This document shows positions 491 through 62,750 of a DNA stretch of 64,000 bases, piece by piece; position 1 is the stretch's first letter, and each line of letters begins with the position of its first letter. The stretch spans positions 41,665-105,664 of the forward strand of contig CANPNZ010000003.1 of assembly GCA_947575605.1 (NCBI GenBank), given 5' to 3'. Source of the stretch: an uncultured Clostridium sp. GTDB lineage: Bacteria; Bacillota; Clostridia; TANB77; CAG-508. A program made the translations under genes and the position numbers. The notes under the pieces are model-generated. The model was given only the letters and a program-made list of their open reading frames with translations, ran no database searches and was not told the origin of the DNA.

Positions 491-1287
491 ATGAAATTTT
501 TATCCAATTGTTTCAAAGGAATTGCCATTGGGAGTGGAGCCATTTTACCTGGTATTAGTAGTGGGGTTTTTTGTGTGATTTTTGGAATTTATGAAAAACT
601 TTTAGATAGTATTTTAAATTTTTTCTCTGATATAAAAAATAATTTTAAATTTCTTTTTCCTATTATCTTAGGTACTGGTTTTGGTATTGTTTTGTTTGGT
701 AATATTTTAAACTACTGCTTGTATCAATTTCCCGTACAAACGAAATCAATTTTCATTGGACTTATTTTAGGAAGTATTCCTTCCTTATTAAAAGAAGTGA
801 GTAAAAAACAAACCTTTCAAATTTCTTACTGGTTTTTCTTTTTATTCACCCTTTTTATTGGGATTAGTTGTATTTTTTTAGAAAAAACATTAGCCATACA
901 AGCCCTTGAAACTGTCAATTTTCCTTATCTTGTTTTATGTGGTTTCTTCATGTCTGTTCGGAATTGTGGTACCAGGTGTTAGTAGTACAATTATTCTAAT
1001 GCTTTTAGGTGTTTATAGTGTTTATCTATCTTCTGTTTCTAGTTTATATTTTCCCGTTTTAATTCCCCTAGCTATGGGGGTAATTCTTGGTGGTTTTTGT
1101 TTTATGAAATTAACTAAGTTCTTACTAGAACGTTTTTATGCTCCGACTTTTTATGCCATTATTGGATTTACCGTTGGTTCTATTTTCGTTTTACTGCCAA
1201 CTTTCTCTTCTATTATTGATGTAGTAATAGGTACTTTATGTTGTTTTTTACGGTTTCATCCTTGCTTCTTTGCTTGAAAATTGCTAA
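491..1287 (+). pseudogene. DUF368-family membrane protein (polyprenyl-phosphate transporter family), broken by two +1 frame breaks at 959 and 1251
   Basis: ORFs 491-982 and 906-1277 each carry a PG(I/V)SS motif (ILPGISSGVF, VVPGVSSTII). Skipping C959 joins ...FFMSV to GIVVPGVSS. Skipping C1251 gives the C-terminus GFILASLLENC. Confidence 0.8.
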
Positions 1288-1603
1288 ATGGCAACTTTGC
1301 CACTGTGCCACTGGGGACGGACCTTTTTGGCAATTTTAAGATTAATAGAATAAAAATAGTAAAAAATAAAAAAGTTTTGCTTGAAAGTAATTGAATTAGA
1401 ACTTCTTAATTCATAATAGGGAAAGAGTTCATGCGTCGTGCATGGAAGGGTGCCATATTATGAATTTAGAAGTTCTATGATAATTAGCTTGAACAAAAAA
1501 CTTTTTTATTTTTTTCTATTTTATTATGAATAACAGAAACATTGCCAAAAAGGTCCGTCCCCAGTGGCAAAGTTGCCATTTAAACCCGGAACCAATGACA
1601 ACC
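1286..1603. repeat. Family-B nested long palindrome, copy B1 (core 1399-1477), with E- and F-type REP hairpins as outer layers
   Basis: The left arm (TGGCAACTTTGCCACTG...GGGGACGGACCTTTTTGGCAA...) is mirrored by the right arm (...TTGCCAAAAAGGTCCGTCCCCAGTGGCAAAGTTGCCA). The centre is GGAAAGAGTTCATGCGTCGTGCATGGAAGGGTGCCAT. Confidence 0.85.
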
Positions 1604-4580: not shown

Positions 4581-4613
4581 GGTTGCCAAGAGGGACGGAC
4601 CTTTTTGGCAACC
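4581..4613. repeat. Family-E REP-like hairpin
   Basis: GGTTGCCAA-GAGGGACGGACCTTT-TTGGCAACC. The same GGGACGGACCTTTTTGGCAA motif occurs at 1314, 1542 (rc) and 27714 (rc). Confidence 0.8.
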
Positions 4614-4620
4614 TTTTCTA

Positions 4621-4902
4621 TTATCTTTCTTTTTCAAGACTACTTTGTCGTTCTCTGTATATTCTATTGCTCCAAGTTAAAATACATTTTCTAATATCTA
4701 ATCCATTCTTCGTTAAATAATTAAACTGTTCTAAAACTTCCTTGTCTTGCATAATTAAATCTGCTGCTTCTTCTTGAGTGATACCTTTTTTCCTATATTC
4801 CGCTATTCTTTCCACAACTCTTTTTCTATTTTGGGTATCTGTATCTGTATTTGGATTTGCTCTTTCTTTTTGTCTCTTTCTGTCACTTTCTATTTCATCC
4901 AT
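4621..4902 (-). CDS. Hypothetical basic protein (93 aa as an ORF; may start at 4949 if the A9 tract is read through)
   Basis: Open frame only. There is no RBS before 4902, but GGAGG precedes an ATG at 4949 that is out of frame by one base across A9 (4932-4940). Confidence 0.4.
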   Translation of the reverse strand: MDEIESDRKRQKERANPNTDTDTQNRKRVVERIAEYRKKGITQEEAADLIMQDKEVLEQFNYLTKNGLDIRKCILTWSNRIYRERQSSLEKER

Positions 4903-12522: not shown

Positions 12523-12672
12523 GGCTAGTTTGGTGGCGGCTTTGGGACAGGTACAACCTATCCATTGTGGTGTATGTCTTGGGACAAGCTAGGTTGATTG
12601 TATCCAAAACTATCTCAAAATGGTCAATTGGTGCCTGTCCCAAAGCCGCCCAAAGCCACCACCAAATTAGCC
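12523..12672. repeat. Family-D REP pair in inverted orientation (BIME-like)
   Basis: GGCTAGTTTGGTGGCGGCTTTGGGACAGGTAC ... GGTGCCTGTCCCAAAGCCGCCCAAAGCCACCACCAAATTAGCC. The right end supplies the stop codon of the 12667 gene. Confidence 0.85.
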
Positions 12673-13620: not shown

Positions 13621-13896
13621 TATTCCTTTAAGTTTCGTTTTTTTGCAATGGGTACTTATATATTAAAAAACGGAATTTAAAATGATCTTAGTACCCGACA
13701 CTTTTTTTGAAATGTGTAATAAAATATAAAAATTAGAAAAAAAGCGAATGGAAAGTAATTTTAACTAGAACTTCTTAATTAATTTTATGGAAAATGTTCG
13801 CACTTTATGTGTGAAAGGGTGCCATAAAATTAATTTAGAAGTTATGTGAAAATTAGCTTGACCGAGCATTTTGATAATTTTTATATTTTCTTACAC
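13621..13896. repeat. Family-B nested palindrome, copy B2 (core 13767-13845), preceded by a family-A-like end AAGTTTCG
   Basis: Arms GTGTAATAAAATATAAAAATTA / TAATTTTTATATTTTCTTACAC. Core ATGGAAAATGTTCGCACTTTATGTGTGAAAGGGTGCCAT. Confidence 0.8.
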
Positions 13897-13984
13897 CTAT
13901 AAAATTAAAAACTGTCAGGTAATAAGTAAAATGATATATCTTGAGGTTACAGGAAAGTCGATTTTTCTTATAACAAATAATTAT

Positions 13985-20582: not shown

Positions 20583-20616
20583 GTATTTTTTTATTTTTAA
20601 ATGGTAGAGATTTAGT

Positions 20617-21752
20617 GGCAAGTTTTGGTGGGATTGGGACAGGCACAAACTAACCATCTCTCTTGTTCCTATTTTCTTTCATATAAGCTCTTTGTATCAT
20701 TCTAATATTAATTCCTAATATTCTTGCCATTTGAGGTTGTGTTACACCTTGAAATCTTCTAATTTTTTGTATAATTTCATCTCGATAGTCTATATTATAT
20801 TTTTGTATTTCTTGAATATTATAGATTCCTAATTTTTCCTTTATAAAATAGATTACTTCCTCATCTGTTAATCTTTTTTTTATTTCATATTCTAACAATT
20901 CGGCACTTTCTTGAAATTTAAAACTTTTTCTATTATATTGAAAAAACTGTTTTTTAGCTTGTTCTTTTGCTGGTGAAAATATTTCTAGAACTTCATTTGT
21001 ATCTACTATTCCATCTTCCTTTTTTAGATTTTCTTCCTCAAAATATTCTAAATAACTACTCCACTTGTATTTCTCCATTTTACTAATACCAGCTTTTATG
21101 GGATTTTGATGAATATATCTAACTAAATTTAACATATAATAGGTATTTTCAACATTTTTGCTTTGGAATCTATTTTCAAATAGATGTCCTACTCTTCTAT
21201 ATTTTCTATTAAAATAATTGGCATAGCTAGTTGCTATACTATGGATAATTTGAGATACTCTTTGACTTTCATCTTTGATTTCTAAATGAACATGATTTGG
21301 CATTAAAACATATGAATATAATTTATATAAAAAATTGTTTTTTGTTTTCCTAATAATATTTTGAAATTCTAAATAATCTTGTTTATCAAAAAAAATGTCT
21401 TGTTTGTTAATTCCTCGCAGCATACAATGATATATACTACTATGGCTTTTCCTTCTGGGTTGTCTTGGCAATCTTTAACCTCCTTTAAAATGTTTAATAT
21501 TGATACCATAAATAACTATCTTCTATGAAAAGTTCCTCCTTTTAATCAAACTTTCCTATAATATAAAAAAGTATAACACATTTTTATCTATTTTGCTATA
21601 CTTTTTTACATTTATTTACATTTTTAATTTATCTACTCTCAATCTCCACTTAAATAGGTAGTTTTCACTATTTAATTTATTCCTATGGCTAGTTTGTGCC
21701 TGTCCCAAATTAGCCAAAAATGGTCAACTTGTGCCTGTCCCAATCCCGCCAC
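20617..21752. mobile_element. REPtron: RayT-like Y1 transposase gene bracketed by inverted family-D REP copies
   Basis: Left: GGTGGGATTGGGACAGGCACAAACTAACC. Right: GGCTAGTTTGTGCCTGTCCCAAATTAGCC and CAACTTGTGCCTGTCCCAATCCCGCC, in the opposite orientation. Confidence 0.7.
20650..21471 (-). CDS. REP-associated tyrosine (Y1, HUH) transposase, RayT/IS200-like, with a C-terminal HTH
   Basis: LMPNHVHLEI (HUH) and VRYIHQNPIKAGI (catalytic Tyr region). TTG start preceded by AAAGGAGG. Confidence 0.8.
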   Translation of the reverse strand: MPRQPRRKSHSSIYHCMLRGINKQDIFFDKQDYLEFQNIIRKTKNNFLYKLYSYVLMPNHVHLEIKDESQRVSQIIHSIATSYANYFNRKYRRVGHLFENRFQSKNVENTYYMLNLVRYIHQNPIKAGISKMEKYKWSSYLEYFEEENLKKEDGIVDTNEVLEIFSPAKEQAKKQFFQYNRKSFKFQESAELLEYEIKKRLTDEEVIYFIKEKLGIYNIQEIQKYNIDYRDEIIQKIRRFQGVTQPQMARILGINIRMIQRAYMKENRNKRDG

Positions 21753-23722: not shown

Positions 23723-23951
23723 TTTTAATTCATTCCTTTTTTTTGGTTACCAATAGTTCCGTTTTCAATGGTTTCAGGGTTTTCGGCAAGTTTACAAATG
23801 CCAATAGTTGCCTGCAAATTATCCTATTTTTAAAATTATTGGATAATGTATTTACATGCTTCTCTTTGAATTTATTGCACAATTTTTATTTATTTCTTAG
23901 GATAGTTAAACGTGTCCCAAAAACATCAAAAGGGATAAGTTGTGTGTGGAT

Positions 23952-24084
23952 AAATTGTGCCTGTCCCAAATTAGCCAAAATGGGTCAATGGGAGTCTGTC
24001 TCAAATCATCTCAAAATGGTTAATTAATGCCTGTGGTTAATTCGTGCCTGTCCCAAACTCGCCATCCCAAACTCGCTACTAACC
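23952..24084. repeat. Cluster of three to four family-D REP copies in direct orientation
   Basis: TTGTGCCTGTCCCAAATTAGCC, GGGAGTCTGTCTCAAAT (degenerate), TTCGTGCCTGTCCCAAACTCGCC. It ends in CTAACC, which supplies the stop of the 24079 gene. Confidence 0.85.
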
Positions 24085-27459: not shown

Positions 27460-27750
27460 GGTTGCCATTAATTCCGGATTTAACTTGCCATTGGTTCCAG
27501 GTTTAAATGGCAACTAATAAATTCTTATTATTTAGATTGTATGTTATATAAAAAAACAGTGACGCGCAGTTTGGAAGGACTCCTATTCATACAGAACAAA
27601 TAGATTAACTTTTCTACTTATGAAATATATCTAATGCCTTTATATGATTCGTTCGACCAGTAAGGAACGAAATTTTTATATATCATACAATCTAATAAAA
27701 AATAAACGAAAGATTGCCAAAAAGGTCCGTCCCCAATGGCACAGTGGCCA
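27460..27750. repeat. Composite nested palindrome: F-type hairpin, AT-rich inverted arms, E-type REP
   Basis: GTTGCCAT...ATGGCAAC; TTAGATTGTATGTTATATAAAAA / TTTTTATATATCATACAATCTAA; TTGCCAAAAAGGTCCGTCCCC. Confidence 0.75.
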
Positions 27751-30308: not shown

Positions 30309-30410
30309 TGCCAACGGTTTCAGGTTTATTTGGCAACTTTTCAATTATCATCCTTTTTCCCTGTATTACTAACTAAAAAAGTTGCCAAATAAACCCAGAA
30401 CCGTTGGCAA
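30309..30410. repeat. Family-F palindrome (33-nt arms)
   Basis: TGCCAACGGTTTCAGGTTTATTTGGCAACTTTT ... AAAAGTTGCCAAATAAACCCAGAACCGTTGGCA. Confidence 0.8.
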
Positions 30411-40697: not shown

Positions 40698-40765
40698 GCT
40701 CACTAAAGTCGATTTTGTACTCCCCTGTTTTAAAAAATTTTTTATTTTTTTTGAAATTTAAAAGT

Positions 40766-40881
40766 CTATAGGACGAATTTTTTGAATTTTCCGTCCTATG
40801 AATTTTTATAGGACGAAATTTTTATTTTTTTCGTCCTATGGATTTTTATAAGTCAATTTTTTTGACTTTTTCGTCTTATAA
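40766..40881. repeat. Three tandem 35-bp palindromic units with about 40-bp periodicity
   Basis: TATAGGACGAA-N13-CCGTCCTATG; TATAGGACGAAA-N9-TTTCGTCCTATG; TATAAGTCAA-N-CGTCTTATAA. They start 4 bp after the Fic stop. Confidence 0.85.
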
Positions 40882-40884
40882 CTT

Positions 40885-42021
40885 TTATTTTAAAAATAAA
40901 TCTATATAATTTTGAAAAGCAAATACTTGATTTCTACTATATCCAGTTGTTTCTATTATTATATTATTTTCTAACAAAACATTTACTGTATCCTTTAATG
41001 TTGATGGTTTTATATCAGTTATTTCCATTAATTTTTTTCTATTTGTTATTGGTTCATTATACAAAACATCGATTACTTTCTTTGCATTTTCTACTTTGAC
41101 TGGTAAATCTATTATAATTTTATCCATTTCCATTGTAAGTTCAACAACATTTCTAAATTTTTCTTTAGCAATTTTTGATGTTTCAATAACTGCTTCTAGG
41201 AAAAATTTAATCCATCCAATCATATCATTGTGAGTTCTTACTCTTGTAAGCATATCATAATATGTATCTTTATTCCTTTCGATATAATCTGAAATATATA
41301 AACAAGACTTTTCAAGCATTCCTCTACTTTGAATATATAATGGTATAATTAATCTTCCTATTCTTCCATTCCCATCTAAAAATGGATGTATTGATTCAAA
41401 TTGATAATGTAAAATTGCGATTTTTATTAAATCTGGTGTGTCTATTTCTTCATTATTTATAAATTTTTCAAAATCAGATAGGCATTCTGCAATTTCTGTA
41501 TGTGGTGGTGGAACATATACTGCTGTACTCGGCATACTGCCTCCAATCCAGTTTTGTGATGTTCTAAATTCTCCTGGTGTTTTATGTTCTCCTCGAACTC
41601 CTTGCATTAATATATTATGTATTTCTCTTATTAATCTAGTGCATACTGGAAAACCTTCTTTTATTCTTTCTACTCCATAATTTGTAGCTTTCACATAGTT
41701 TTGTACTTCTTCCCAATCATCTCTCTTTTCTGGATTAATATCTGTAACATCTAATAAATCTTCCTCTACCGTTGTTCTTGTTCCTTCAATTCTGCTTGAT
41801 TTATTGGCTTCAATTTTTACATGCATTTTAATGTATAAATCCACATTTGGTATTAATAATGAATAAGCATTTAGTTCTCCAATTTGCCTATTTGCTTCTG
41901 CTAATAGCTTGTCCAATTTTGTATCATCCCATCCCCAGTTGTAATTTATTTTACTTGGAATAAATGCTTTGTAGTCATTCATTTGTATATATTCACCTGA
42001 TTTATATGCTTCTAATTTCAT
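40885..42021 (-). CDS. Fic-family protein (AMPylase type) with an N-terminal inhibitory-helix motif and a C-terminal wHTH-like tail
   Basis: HPFLDGNGRIGR matches HxFx(D/E)GNGRxxR. SSRIEG fits (S/T)xxxE(G/N). GGAGG lies 8 nt before the ATG. Confidence 0.88.
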   Translation of the reverse strand: MKLEAYKSGEYIQMNDYKAFIPSKINYNWGWDDTKLDKLLAEANRQIGELNAYSLLIPNVDLYIKMHVKIEANKSSRIEGTRTTVEEDLLDVTDINPEKRDDWEEVQNYVKATNYGVERIKEGFPVCTRLIREIHNILMQGVRGEHKTPGEFRTSQNWIGGSMPSTAVYVPPPHTEIAECLSDFEKFINNEEIDTPDLIKIAILHYQFESIHPFLDGNGRIGRLIIPLYIQSRGMLEKSCLYISDYIERNKDTYYDMLTRVRTHNDMIGWIKFFLEAVIETSKIAKEKFRNVVELTMEMDKIIIDLPVKVENAKKVIDVLYNEPITNRKKLMEITDIKPSTLKDTVNVLLENNIIIETTGYSRNQVFAFQNYIDLFLK

Positions 42022-55744: not shown

Positions 55745-55806
55745 TCATTCCTCCCTTTTGCTATTTTTGTTTCGTTTTAATTTACATGGTAAGACAAGTA
55801 ATTTTC

Positions 55807-55989
55807 AAGTTTCGGCCTTTGTAAGTAAAGATTATGATATATAATTTTAAAACACTGCGTAAGCGACCAAACGAGCTATGCGAGTGCGATTGGAGCAACC
55901 GACAGATATTTTTTAAATTTGGTAGGTTGCGACACACAAAGTGTAAAAAAATTATATATCATAATCTTTACTTACAAAGGCCGAAACTT
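55807..55989. repeat. Family-A palindromic element, copy A2, with an extra hairpin inserted in its core
   Basis: Ends AAGTTTCGGCCTTTGTAAG... / ...CTTACAAAGGCCGAAACTT. The core TAAGCGACCAAACGAG and GCGACACACAAAGTG are separated by a 52-nt insert carrying GCAACC...GGTTGC. Confidence 0.85.
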
Positions 55990-56110
55990 AAACCTTACTT
56001 TTTATTGACAAATAAAATAAAAATATAATATAGAATAAAGGTGTACTTTTACCATATAAATCAATACTATTTCTTACATTTTCAATCTTCTATTCTTTCT
56101 AATCATTTTC

Positions 56111-56850: not shown

Positions 56851-57342
56851 AAGTTTCGACATTTTTTGAGATTTGCCAAAAGTCCAAACTTGAAAAATTT
56901 TGTTTAAGTTTCGGTTCTTTGAAAAGCTTGGTTCCCCCTCCTCTTGGTATGAATATCATCTATTTTATTCGTATCGCTTGATTGAAACAAGAAATAGAAA
57001 TTGTTAAGTAAGAAAATGAGGGACGTTCAAGGCAAGACAGTATTCTATCCTTCTCATAAATTCAGTGATTTCTTACATAAATCAAGAAATTCTAGAATCA
57101 TTTTATGGCACCCTTCCACGCACAACGCGTGAACTCTTTCCATAAAATGATTTAAGAATTTCTAAATTTATTCCAGTCACACACTTCATTTATTCAAAAG
57201 ATAGAATGCTGTCTTGAACGTGAAAGCGGCTCATTTTCTTACTTTACAATTTCTTTTCAAGTGGAATGAACAAGATACGAATAAAATAGATGATATTCAT
57301 ACCAAGAGGAGGGGGAACGAATCTTTTCAAAAAACCGAAACT
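56851..57342. repeat. Family-B nested palindrome, copy B3 (437-bp palindrome 56906-57342, core 57085-57162 in reverse orientation), plus a solo family-A-like end at 56851
   Basis: AAGTTTCGGTTCTTTGAAAAG...CCTCTTGGTATGAATATCATC mirrored by GATGATATTCATACCAAGAGG...CAAAAAACCGAAACT. Centre ATGGCACCCTTCCACGCACAACGCGTGAACTCTTTCCAT. Confidence 0.9.
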
Positions 57343-57461
57343 AAAAAAAATTTAGCTCTTGACTTTTCCAATTTTTTACATTATAATGTTTTATATTTTC
57401 TATCTTTTATTTCTTAAATTTCCCCTTAAAATTATATATAAACTGAAAGGAGGCACGTTTA

Positions 57462-62621: not shown

Positions 62622-62676
62622 AATTACTCTCTCCTTCTTTTTTCCTCTCTTCTAAATGATTACATTATTTATCTTC

Positions 62677-62750
62677 AAGTTTCGACTTTTTGTAAGGGTA
62701 GGTTGTAATATATAATTTTGCAACTACTTAAGTAAGCGACCAAACGAGTG
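62677..62750. repeat. Family-A element, copy A3; left half only, ending 2 bp before the radA stop codon
   Basis: AAGTTTCGACTTTTTGTAAGGGTAGGTTGTAATATATAATTTTGCAAC...TAAGCGACCAAACGAGTG. Confidence 0.8.

Follow-up and report, generated by a model that had tools for sequence, protein, structure and literature searches.

Three copies of a foldback repeat in the window

The stretch of DNA analysed here, 64,000 nucleotides of contig CANPNZ010000003.1 from an uncultured Clostridium sp. (hereafter the window), carries three copies of a palindromic repeat that we designate B (B1, B2 and B3; Table 1). B1 lies between convergent genes, B2 between tandem genes and B3 between divergent genes. A first-pass annotation, made from the letters of the window alone, had placed a shared core at 1399-1477 (+), 13767-13845 (+) and 57085-57162 (-) and had proposed a covariance model as a check. 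All three sites were confirmed: a model built from 71 homologues returned exactly three copies when the 64 kb were searched, with scores of 86.0, 86.0 and 95.7 bits for B1, B2 and B3 (E-values of 1e-19 to 4e-22). The reverse strands of the same cores scored 38-49 bits and the next unrelated hairpin of the window 24 bits. Together with the homologues described below, these cores are copies of a previously undescribed, lineage-specific, non-coding foldback repeat that is mobile in uncultured, low-GC gut Clostridia.

Each core folds as RNA into the predicted hairpin shape, with energies of -32 to -35 kcal/mol and z-scores of -7 to -9, and the same shapes were obtained with DNA parameters; the opposite strands fold 4-7 kcal/mol weaker. 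The apical stems first described, CATGC/GCATG in B1, CGCAC/GTGTG with one G.T pair in B2 and CACGC/GCGTG in B3, are all present, and RNAalifold lengthens the apical stem by U-A and U.G/U-A pairs. The purine-rich strands of the internal loop are nearly constant, as reported; the loop itself measures 6x6 (AAAGAG/AGGGTG) by RNAalifold and not 8x8. Folded whole, the stretches 1286-1603 and 56890-57360 each form a single hairpin, of -135 kcal/mol (z -15) and -229 kcal/mol (z -24), respectively.

Table 1. B copies in the window, their parts and the features around them. Families A, E and F are other repeats of the window, described in the text; REP, repetitive extragenic palindrome.
Feature	Position	Strand	Remarks
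B1 core hairpin	1394-1479	+	model 86.0 bits; fold -33.2 kcal/mol, z -7.1; family covariation
B1 outer stem	1397-1406 paired with 1468-1477	+	TAGAACTTCT with AGAAGTTCTA
B1 lower stem	1409-1421 paired with 1453-1465	+	
B1 loop strands	1422-1427 (5') and 1447-1452 (3')	+	AAAGAG and AGGGTG
B1 upper stem	1428-1434 paired with 1440-1446	+	terminal loop GTCGT, 1435-1439
Left flank of B1 unit	1379-1397	+	GCTTGAAAGTAATTGAAT, 5' strand of second asymmetric loop; conserved in sub-family a
Right flank of B1 unit	1478-1494	+	TGATAATTAGCTTGAAC, 3' strand of second asymmetric loop; conserved in sub-family a
B1 left outer arm	1286-1378	+	E-type REP-like hairpin (about 1297-1333) and A/T-rich spacer
B1 right outer arm (to 1581)	1497-1602	+	inverted E-type hairpin 1542-1571, F-type hairpin 1572-1602
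8-nt direct repeat, first copy	1272-1279	+	GCTTGAAA; holds TGA stop (1275-1277) of open reading frame 906-1277
B2 core hairpin	13763-13848	+	model 86.0 bits; fold -32.3 kcal/mol
B2-type unit	13723-13905	+	core, second and third loops, short arms
Right end of B2 unit		+	15-nt non-palindromic extension TCTTACACCTATAAA
Solitary family-A-like end left of B2	13630-13644	+	AAGTTTCGTTTTTTT; 7 pattern matches in window vs 0.47 expected
B3 core hairpin	57082-57167	-	model 95.7 bits; fold -35.4 kcal/mol, z -9.0
445-nt foldback MITE (short for miniature inverted-repeat transposable element) with B3 at centre	56901-57345	-	empty site in five same-species strains
Terminal inverted repeats of B3 MITE (family A)		+	TGTTTAAGTTTCGG... 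and ...CCGAAACTAAA
8-bp target-site duplication, left copy	56893-56900	+	AAAAATTT
8-bp target-site duplication, right copy	57346-57353	+	AAAAATTT; directly upstream of promoter-like site

Distribution and consensus of the B family

Homologues were sought with the exact core 16-mer AAGGGTGCCATAAAAT in a collection of species-representative genomes. At least 120 stretches were matched, and about 90 of 124 matches proved to be the B element. Overall, we count at least some 95 copies of the core in more than 40 species-level metagenome-assembled genomes (MAGs) of uncultured, low-GC gut Clostridia, Clostridium sp. CAG:440 and Ca. Scatovivens among them, from human, rabbit, sheep, goat, mouse and other guts; the copies in this and the following counts are not phylogenetically independent. 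The window itself derives from an organism of the mouse gut. Loci picked without regard to B contained seven copies in 461 kb.

The consensus reads TAGAAATTCT - N5-7 - ATTTTATGG - AAAGAG - UUC[variable hairpin]GRA - AGGGTG - CCATAAAAT - N - AGAATTTCTA. Conservation reaches about 50-60 nt beyond the core on either side, where a second and a third asymmetric loop follow. Two sub-families differ in these loops, which are GAATTGAAAG / CTTGAACGA and then TTGAAAAA / TTTTTGAAAA in sub-family a, and 5' CGAATGTGATTGGAG / 3' GTATTGAGCCGAG and then TTGAATGAAAT / GTAATGAAAA in sub-family b. We looked for shells that have the second loop but lack the core and found none. A reading of the direct-repeat-like asymmetric loops as relics of target duplications from nested insertions was also considered. 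The B unit spans about 150-190 nt; taken over a range of 150-470 nt, it is non-coding, multi-copy (3 per 64 kb) and shorter than about 500 bp, as expected of a MITE.

The family appears to have no counterpart in the collections searched. A comparison with Rfam, also proposed in the first-pass annotation, brought no family to its gathering threshold: over the whole window only two tRNAs passed, and around B2 and B3 the best models at E<=10 were microRNA precursors with 16-30 bits against thresholds of 60-210. No true copies were found among 72,556 plasmids (blastn, two queries) or, by exact 16-mer, in the phage contigs of IMG/VR. A small open reading frame (ORF) behind the Shine-Dalgarno-like GAAGGGTG was considered and rejected, as its start position is not conserved and the codon after CCATAAA is ATG, ATA, ATT or ATC.

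Covariation and strand specificity of the core

The compensatory changes that had been noticed in three apical stems are borne out across 71 sequences. Variable apical pairs occur as CG39/AU17/UA11/GC1 and as GC21/AU13/UA11/CG7, and double changes were found in 17 of 28 pairs, a result matched by none of 500 shuffles. Pairing cells amount to 89.6% vs 82.2% in the shuffles and 42-53% when the partners are slid. The apical stem ranges from 3 bp closed by a tetraloop to a branched domain of 32 nt, and divergent members keep the design by means of a compensated lower stem (TATATGGAG/CTCCATATA). Since most homologues were drawn by the exact core 16-mer, the invariance of its columns is partly a matter of ascertainment. 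Eight second copies were found only by the model; the 16-mer is exact in four of them and has at most one mismatch in six. Conservation is nonetheless 90% or more in columns that the search pattern does not cover, TAGAAATTCT for example.

The structure is also strand-specific, in line with the single G-U pair noted in B2. The base of the upper stem is a U.G pair in 52 of 71 sequences and U-A in the others, and the upper stem holds about ten G.U against two C.A/A.C. Based on this excess, the purine-loop strand is the strand that must fold. The earlier view of a selected structure, as opposed to a plain inverted repeat, is upheld by strand-asymmetric conserved loops and covarying helices in more than 40 species. 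K-turn, sarcin-ricin, C/D-box and CsrA-type motifs were also compared with the purine loop, on inspection only, and rejected, their constraints being unmet or not conserved across the sub-families.

Genomic context and a possible role in RNA

None of 90 copies lies within an ORF; all are intergenic. With the purine-loop strand as reference, 33 of 74 contexts have two antisense neighbours and 17 have two sense neighbours; the genes diverge in 14 and converge in 10. The 166 flanking ORFs yield no family with more than three members, and promoters and terminators around B are no more numerous than in shuffles. Such varied contexts, together with the lack of an associated gene family, promoter, terminator or small ORF, speak against both a gene-specific cis-regulator and a simple 3'-UTR element. 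In 59 of 90 copies (59:31) the purine loop is carried by the C-rich strand, a modest bias that corresponds to the leading-strand template.

A more general role at the RNA level is the main rival to the single-stranded DNA (ssDNA) reading developed below. The core would then be a structured module that functions within transcripts, whether as a small RNA or as an element for protein binding, processing or stability comparable to the ERIC, Correia or bcr1 hairpins, and repeats would have spread it through the genome. Several features would suit such a module: tolerance of U.G and G.U pairs is confined to one strand, a purine-rich symmetric internal loop is typical of RNA-protein sites, GAGA or GTGA loops cap many of the short apical stems, and ERIC and bcr1 are precedents of transcribed repeats with compensatory changes (PMC3184786). 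Additionally, a contig from a run labelled as metatranscriptomic spans 1304-1569 at a depth similar to that of neighbouring genes; however, the RNA-labelled data are Logan contigs that end at the repeat and may contain DNA. Further against it, Rfam gives no match even at E<=10, no conserved promoter, terminator or gene association accompanies the core, and transcription from an upstream gene would enter the purine-loop strand in only 27 of the 74 contexts, compared with the 33 antisense and 14 divergent arrangements. We consider this role unlikely on balance, while treating it as a serious contender.

One locus (L067/L117) was seen to carry a 244-aa HNH-endonuclease-like ORF (...DHMYPRDTGGPTIPQNLIPACRGCNHKK...) 10-140 nt from the B core, as a single occurrence.

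Gain, loss and limits of B units

B3 offers the clearest record of an insertion. Strains encoding an identical 121-aa neighbour have an intergenic region of 213 nt, vs about 650 nt in the window, and in the alignment the site is empty, with clean junctions, in L233, L234, L235, L238 and L239. The B3-type composite is conserved at six other loci from four assemblies. One MAG contains two more full composites at different loci with 9-10-bp duplications and L074 has another, so that three more shells of this type (L039, L045 and L074) carry such duplications. The B3 shell is a genuine MITE moved by a DDE-type enzyme, with the core riding at its centre. A promoter-like TTGACT-17-TATAAT (57359-57387, 11/12 matches) starts six bases past the duplication; the promoter of the downstream gene was spared by the insertion. 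The composite is inserted beside another solitary A-like end (56851-56865).

Inverted repeats with a target duplication were seen for the B3-type composite and not for B2-type or naked units, whose flanks are palindromic or unrelated. A different sub-family of units (L008, L009, L011, L071 and L120) ends in CTGTCAACCTAAA...TTTAGGTTGACAG. In L008 and L009 a TA stands on both sides of the unit, possibly an IS630/mariner-type TA duplication, which would make this a second kind of shell on the same core. Shell ends are represented by TTAAGTTTCGG and CTGTCAACCTAAA. No transposase adjoins the sampled B copies, and transposases with A-type or CTGTCAAC ends were not searched for systematically.

The core could also be a passive passenger that binds a nucleoid or replication protein and hitch-hikes in ordinary MITEs and by local duplication. 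Bacterial interspersed mosaic elements, for instance, are sites for gyrase and IHF. The clean junctions are indeed of DDE type, in an A-type shell with 8-10 bp duplications, with the possible TA duplication of the CTGTCAAC sub-family beside them, and the core is highly conserved across species whose U32 proteins are 69-96% identical. A passenger is quite unlikely in our estimate, because naked units (L130, L227) and units with unique arms (L018, L096) have no carrier shell and the asymmetric, purine-only loops are ill-suited to a site in double-stranded DNA.

The history of B1 was followed in 80 orthologous loci fetched for the U32-peptidase gene, plus the window (81 in all). B lies downstream of this gene in six: the window, a sister species (L130, whose U32 protein is 96% identical to that of the window) and, as a divergent variant, four related MAGs. 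Other species carry assorted REP-like hairpins after the gene instead of B. B1 is also present in a sister strain, L227, whose carB and methyltransferase proteins are identical to those of the window. Filled and empty sites were thus both observed at the U32 locus, as at the B3 site.

In L227 and L130 the copy lacks the E/F layers, so that the window shows two extra blocks by comparison, at about 1280-1378 and about 1478-1612. The left-flank motif GCTTGAAAGTAATTGAAT supplies the TGA stop of the neighbouring gene in both L227 and L130; the right flank TGATAATTAGCTTGAAC is missing from both copies. A second copy of GCTTGAAA at 1379-1386 forms with the first a pair bracketing the extra left block, where L227 and L130 have a single copy. 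The L227/L130 copy is truncated, as the canonical right flank is absent and the copy abuts the U32 stop codon. In the most economical history, REP hairpins would have stood in the ancestor on the U32 side alone; an inverted copy of this flank would then have been added across the core in the lineage of the window, and a deletion would have occurred in that of L227 and L130. As a separate observation at this locus, the gene of a VCA0040/DUF368-like membrane protein (491-1277) is split into overlapping ORFs (491-982 and 906-1277), with the stop within GCTTGAAA beside B1; a frameshift or an assembly error is possible.

B2 provides the limits of a unit free of a shell. A B2-type unit recurs in another species (L069), the similarity being bounded at the limits given in Table 1. 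The L069 locus is probably not orthologous, as tblastn found neither carB nor the esterase there. The unit has neither an inverted-repeat nor a duplication signature, and its right end is asymmetric. The left junctions of B2-type units are GTAAT and GTACT in the two junction pairs available. B2 is present in every contig of the species that was examined, and short-read contigs break at the edge of the unit, those from Logan about 204 nt beyond the stop codon of carB. More generally, short-read contigs of the lineage were seen to end a few hundred bases past genes at repeat edges (L124-L129, L131, L135, L161, L173, L185, L198 and L199), and these repeats appear to contribute to the fragmentation of MAGs.

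Outer palindromes have three origins

The outer layers were initially described as E/F REP-like hairpins around B1 and family-A ends around B2 and B3. This holds for B1 and B3; B2 has only the single A-like end listed in Table 1, not a pair. In B1 the inverted repeat has arms of 80 nt (1299-1378 / 1497-1576) that are 83% complementary. Across the family, arms around the core extend 58-242 nt per side, and additional arms, 81-100% identical and in symmetric register, accompany about 35 of 79 copies. In one MAG, the B unit stands at the exact centre of unrelated, near-perfect arms at different loci.

The layers do differ from core to core, as originally stated; that all of them are nested insertions of other repeat families does not hold. 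The arm of L018 is about 118 nt long by eye with 3 mismatches (76 nt at 96% with a strict aligner) and that of L096 is 53 nt and perfect by eye (42 nt at 100% with the aligner). Among 185,579 species genomes, neither arm was found beyond the two arms of its own locus. Nested insertion is ruled out for these two loci by their unique arms, which instead denote locus-specific inverted duplications centred on the core. Consequently, three origins of the layers are recognized: a transposon shell at B3, paired REP-like hairpins at B1 and local inverted duplication in other genomes. That a palindrome can seed an inverted duplication with itself at the centre is known (PMC3315005), and fold-back priming has been described (PMC10622511). 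At one further locus (L036, CAZBMU01), the last 17 nt of both convergent flanking ORFs, stops included, lie inside the two arms, and the two C-termini are therefore encoded by reverse complements of each other. Arms overlapping coding sequence were sought as proof of flank duplication; only this symmetric 17-nt overlap was found, and it is not decisive.

Isolated mismatches in the arms are G.T in 51 and A.C in 50 cases. The arms thus show no wobble preference for either strand, as expected of DNA-level palindromes and not of a selected fold. Quasi-palindrome correction is an established mutational process, and one might suppose that all matched changes of B, those of the core included, are by-products of such arm-to-arm templated correction, with nothing selected. 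The near-perfect, locus-specific arms and their lack of wobble bias would agree with this. For the core, the proposal is contradicted: correction would erase mismatched loops, yet the U.G pair and all three loops (the 6x6 one, the second and the third) persist in more than 40 species while the intervening stems change freely. We therefore regard neutral palindromes as a very improbable account of the family, and templated correction as the likely explanation of the outer arms.

A model for the propagation of B

B units were thus encountered naked, within shells having inverted repeats and duplications, and at the exact centre of locus-unique inverted duplications. Our preferred reading, held tentatively and at somewhat less than an even chance, is that B is a mobile foldback unit whose core is a selected single-strand hairpin, likely the cis site of the unit's own propagation through ssDNA, the outer palindromes being secondary. 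According to this model, the core of about 80 nt would be kept by selection as a hairpin of the single-stranded purine-loop strand. The constant 6x6 purine loop and the lower stem would form the recognition surface for a conserved trans-acting protein, while the apical stem would be under one demand, pairing. The hairpin may then act as the cis site for ssDNA propagation in the manner of REP/RAYT systems or of IS200/IS605 ends. We lean to this reading because naked units lack inverted repeats and target duplications and because loops retained in more than 40 species, and in shells of several kinds, would not be expected of a passenger. The hairpin may also seed fold-back (template-switch) inverted duplication of neighbouring DNA, and where that DNA includes a transposon end, a new MITE that a DDE transposase can move, such as B3, could result.

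Several observations weigh against this reading. When 1.49 Mb of DNA from the lineage was scanned with a crude HUH...Y motif, no credible IS200-like TnpA came to light, the two ORFs returned by HUH...Y..Q being unlike TnpA of the IS200 type, and no transposase recurs beside the unit among the flanking ORFs. The sole transposition with clean junctions, that of B3, is of DDE type and does not need the core. Orientation bias in IS200/IS605 elements is tied to the lagging-strand template, and the bias of B runs opposite. Matched changes can also arise by templated correction between the arms of a DNA palindrome, hence covariation alone is no proof of selection. The history of B1 requires at least two events and is readable as loss or as gain, and the fold-back duplications are deduced from what appear to be their end products.

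A more specific proposal, which we find doubtful, is that the hairpin serves as a 'palindrome seed' for making new mobile elements: wherever it lands, fold-back template switching would copy the adjoining DNA inverted around it and turn one transposon end into a perfect pair of inverted repeats, a newborn MITE within reach of the resident transposase. If true, this would explain how one conserved core comes to lie in shells with unrelated ends. In a stronger version, the insertion mechanism of the unit itself would produce the inverted duplication of the flank directly, a way of transposing for which bacteria offer no described case.

The least probable of the accounts considered is that B is an ssoA-like single-strand origin, or an ssDNA promoter, recruiting RNA polymerase for a primer or transcript; we give it hardly any credence. 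Like ssoA, B forms a long, imperfect palindrome in which unpaired regions are conserved in a strand-specific way. Its right arm GAGCCGAGAAATTTAT recalls the RS_B sequence 5'-TTATGCCGAGAAAATTT (PMC4598088), its left arm ACTGGAATAAATTT is reminiscent of the partner motif of pE194 and pT181, GGAAATTGGAATAAA, and some long apical variants carry a CS-6-like TAGCGA. However, the motifs stand on the arms opposite to those of ssoA (the RS_B-like one on the 3' arm) and CS-6 is lacking in most copies. The family profile is silent at the ssoA of pE194 and pT181 (nhmmer), the best ungapped RS_B match reaches 11.0/17 vs 11.1/17 in composition-matched shuffles, and B is chromosomal and multi-copy, with no BLAST match in the 72,556 plasmids and none in IMG/VR. 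An ssoA origin deduced from the motifs GCCGAGAAA / GAGCCGAGAAATTT was accordingly rejected, the arms being swapped, nhmmer silent and the match at chance level in A/T-rich DNA.

Relation to known repeats

In behaviour B is closest to ERIC and bcr1 and also near the REPINs, and it is a member of none of them, because there is no sequence relation, its arms are not REPs, no RAYT was found, and its inverted-repeat and duplication features reside in the shells. The features of ERIC, a suspected role of the folded single strand included, were reportedly set out by Wilson and Sharp in 2006. Similar to B, ERIC (about 127 bp) is an intergenic imperfect palindrome whose centre is conserved; it occurs in both orientations, is shared by related genera, has size variants formed by internal insertions and is suspected of acting as a folded single strand (PMC3184786). 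Yet its hosts belong to another phylum and it has no sequence similarity to B. Elements of the ERIC type also have terminal inverted repeats flanked by TA, neither of which is found in naked B units. The B core, for its part, combines an asymmetric purine loop that is strictly conserved with an apical stem whose length varies. The bcr1 repeat of the Bacillus cereus group (about 155 bp) is likewise an intergenic Firmicute element of about 150 nt, variable between strains, in which compensatory changes keep a long hairpin (PMC3184786); it differs in its 5-bp direct repeats, absent from naked B units, and in its known transcription.

REPINs and the REP-RAYT system resemble B as non-autonomous hairpin repeats without target duplication, with long vertical inheritance and presumed recognition as single-stranded hairpins (PMC3116915, PMC3337134). 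A REPIN consists of two inverted short REP palindromes around a variable spacer, whereas the arms of B are not palindromes and its centre is the most conserved part. Furthermore, neither the 1.49 Mb motif scan nor the flanking ORFs gave a RAYT for B. The E/F hairpins of this genome fit the REP/REPIN definition better.

The B3 composite is comparable to Correia/NEMIS, RUP and classical MITEs (445 nt, non-coding, with inverted repeats, an 8-bp duplication and empty sites), but these features belong to the shell and not to the B core, and the same core occurs in differing shells or in none. Palindrome-centred inverted duplications, such as that at an interrupted palindrome in E. coli, are alike in being unique duplications centred on an existing hairpin (PMC3315005, PMC10622511); the known cases are large rearrangements in repair mutants, whereas the arms of B are 20-120 nt long and fixed in wild populations. 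With ssoA, B shares the long imperfect one-strand hairpin with conserved unpaired motifs, and differs from it in the inverted arrangement and the lack of a plasmid context. As for elements derived from IS200/IS605 (PATE), the two junction pairs available for the B2-type unit allow a limited comparison: the unit shows neither inverted repeats nor a duplication and has an asymmetric right end, while the strand bias of B runs in the opposite sense. Finally, integron attC sites have an analogous hairpin anatomy, but B is dispersed between housekeeping genes in both orientations and not arrayed in cassettes.

Other repeats of the window

The REP-like hairpins seem to make up a second family of structured repeats, one whose stems covary. 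E-type hairpins lie at 1297-1333, 1542-1571, 4584-4631 and 27703-27748, the last two without B, and F-type hairpins at 1572-1602, 27485-27515 and 30309-30409; E/F-like hairpins also directly follow the U32 stop codon at L131-L146. They have a conserved loop, GGGGACNGNCCTTTTT (GGTTCCGGGTTTAAA in F), on stems that differ fully between species (TGCCA.., GAGAC.., GGAGCA..). Often they stand right after a stop codon and are followed by a T-run, and some form inverted, REPIN-like pairs.

Family A comprises MITE-like elements and solitary ends with AAGTTTCG(N2)TTTTT, at 159-298, 55796-56000 and 62674-62719 in addition to 13630-13644 and 56851-56865; the number of pattern matches and its expectation stand in Table 1. 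On either side of the copy at 159-298 stands TCTCCTTGT, a direct repeat of 9 nt in which a ribosome-binding site is present as its reverse complement. A further family, based on GTGCCTGTCCCAAA (reverse complement TTTGGGACAGGCAC), occurs in direct and inverted pairs at 12535-12650, 20610-20657, 21684-21751 and 23945-24064 and resembles the GGGACAGG loop of REP-like hairpins in other species. At 40736-40886, where the window is richest in A/T (24% GC), three tandem units of 40 nt each contain a small CGTCCTATAG-like hairpin.

Significance

B adds a strongly conserved, structured repeat family to a large, genome-reduced group of uncultured gut Clostridia for which Rfam and the searched collections of plasmids and phages list none. 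Its many natural hairpin variants, with constant loops and free stems, are material for finding the protein that reads them. Mobility at the strain level makes the repeat usable as a strain marker, and its presence appears to explain why short-read contigs of this lineage stop at such sites. The locus-specific duplications centred on the core afford a natural, population-level view of palindrome growth, studied so far mainly in repair mutants and cancer genomes, and such growth around a conserved core suggests a simple route by which new MITEs may arise.

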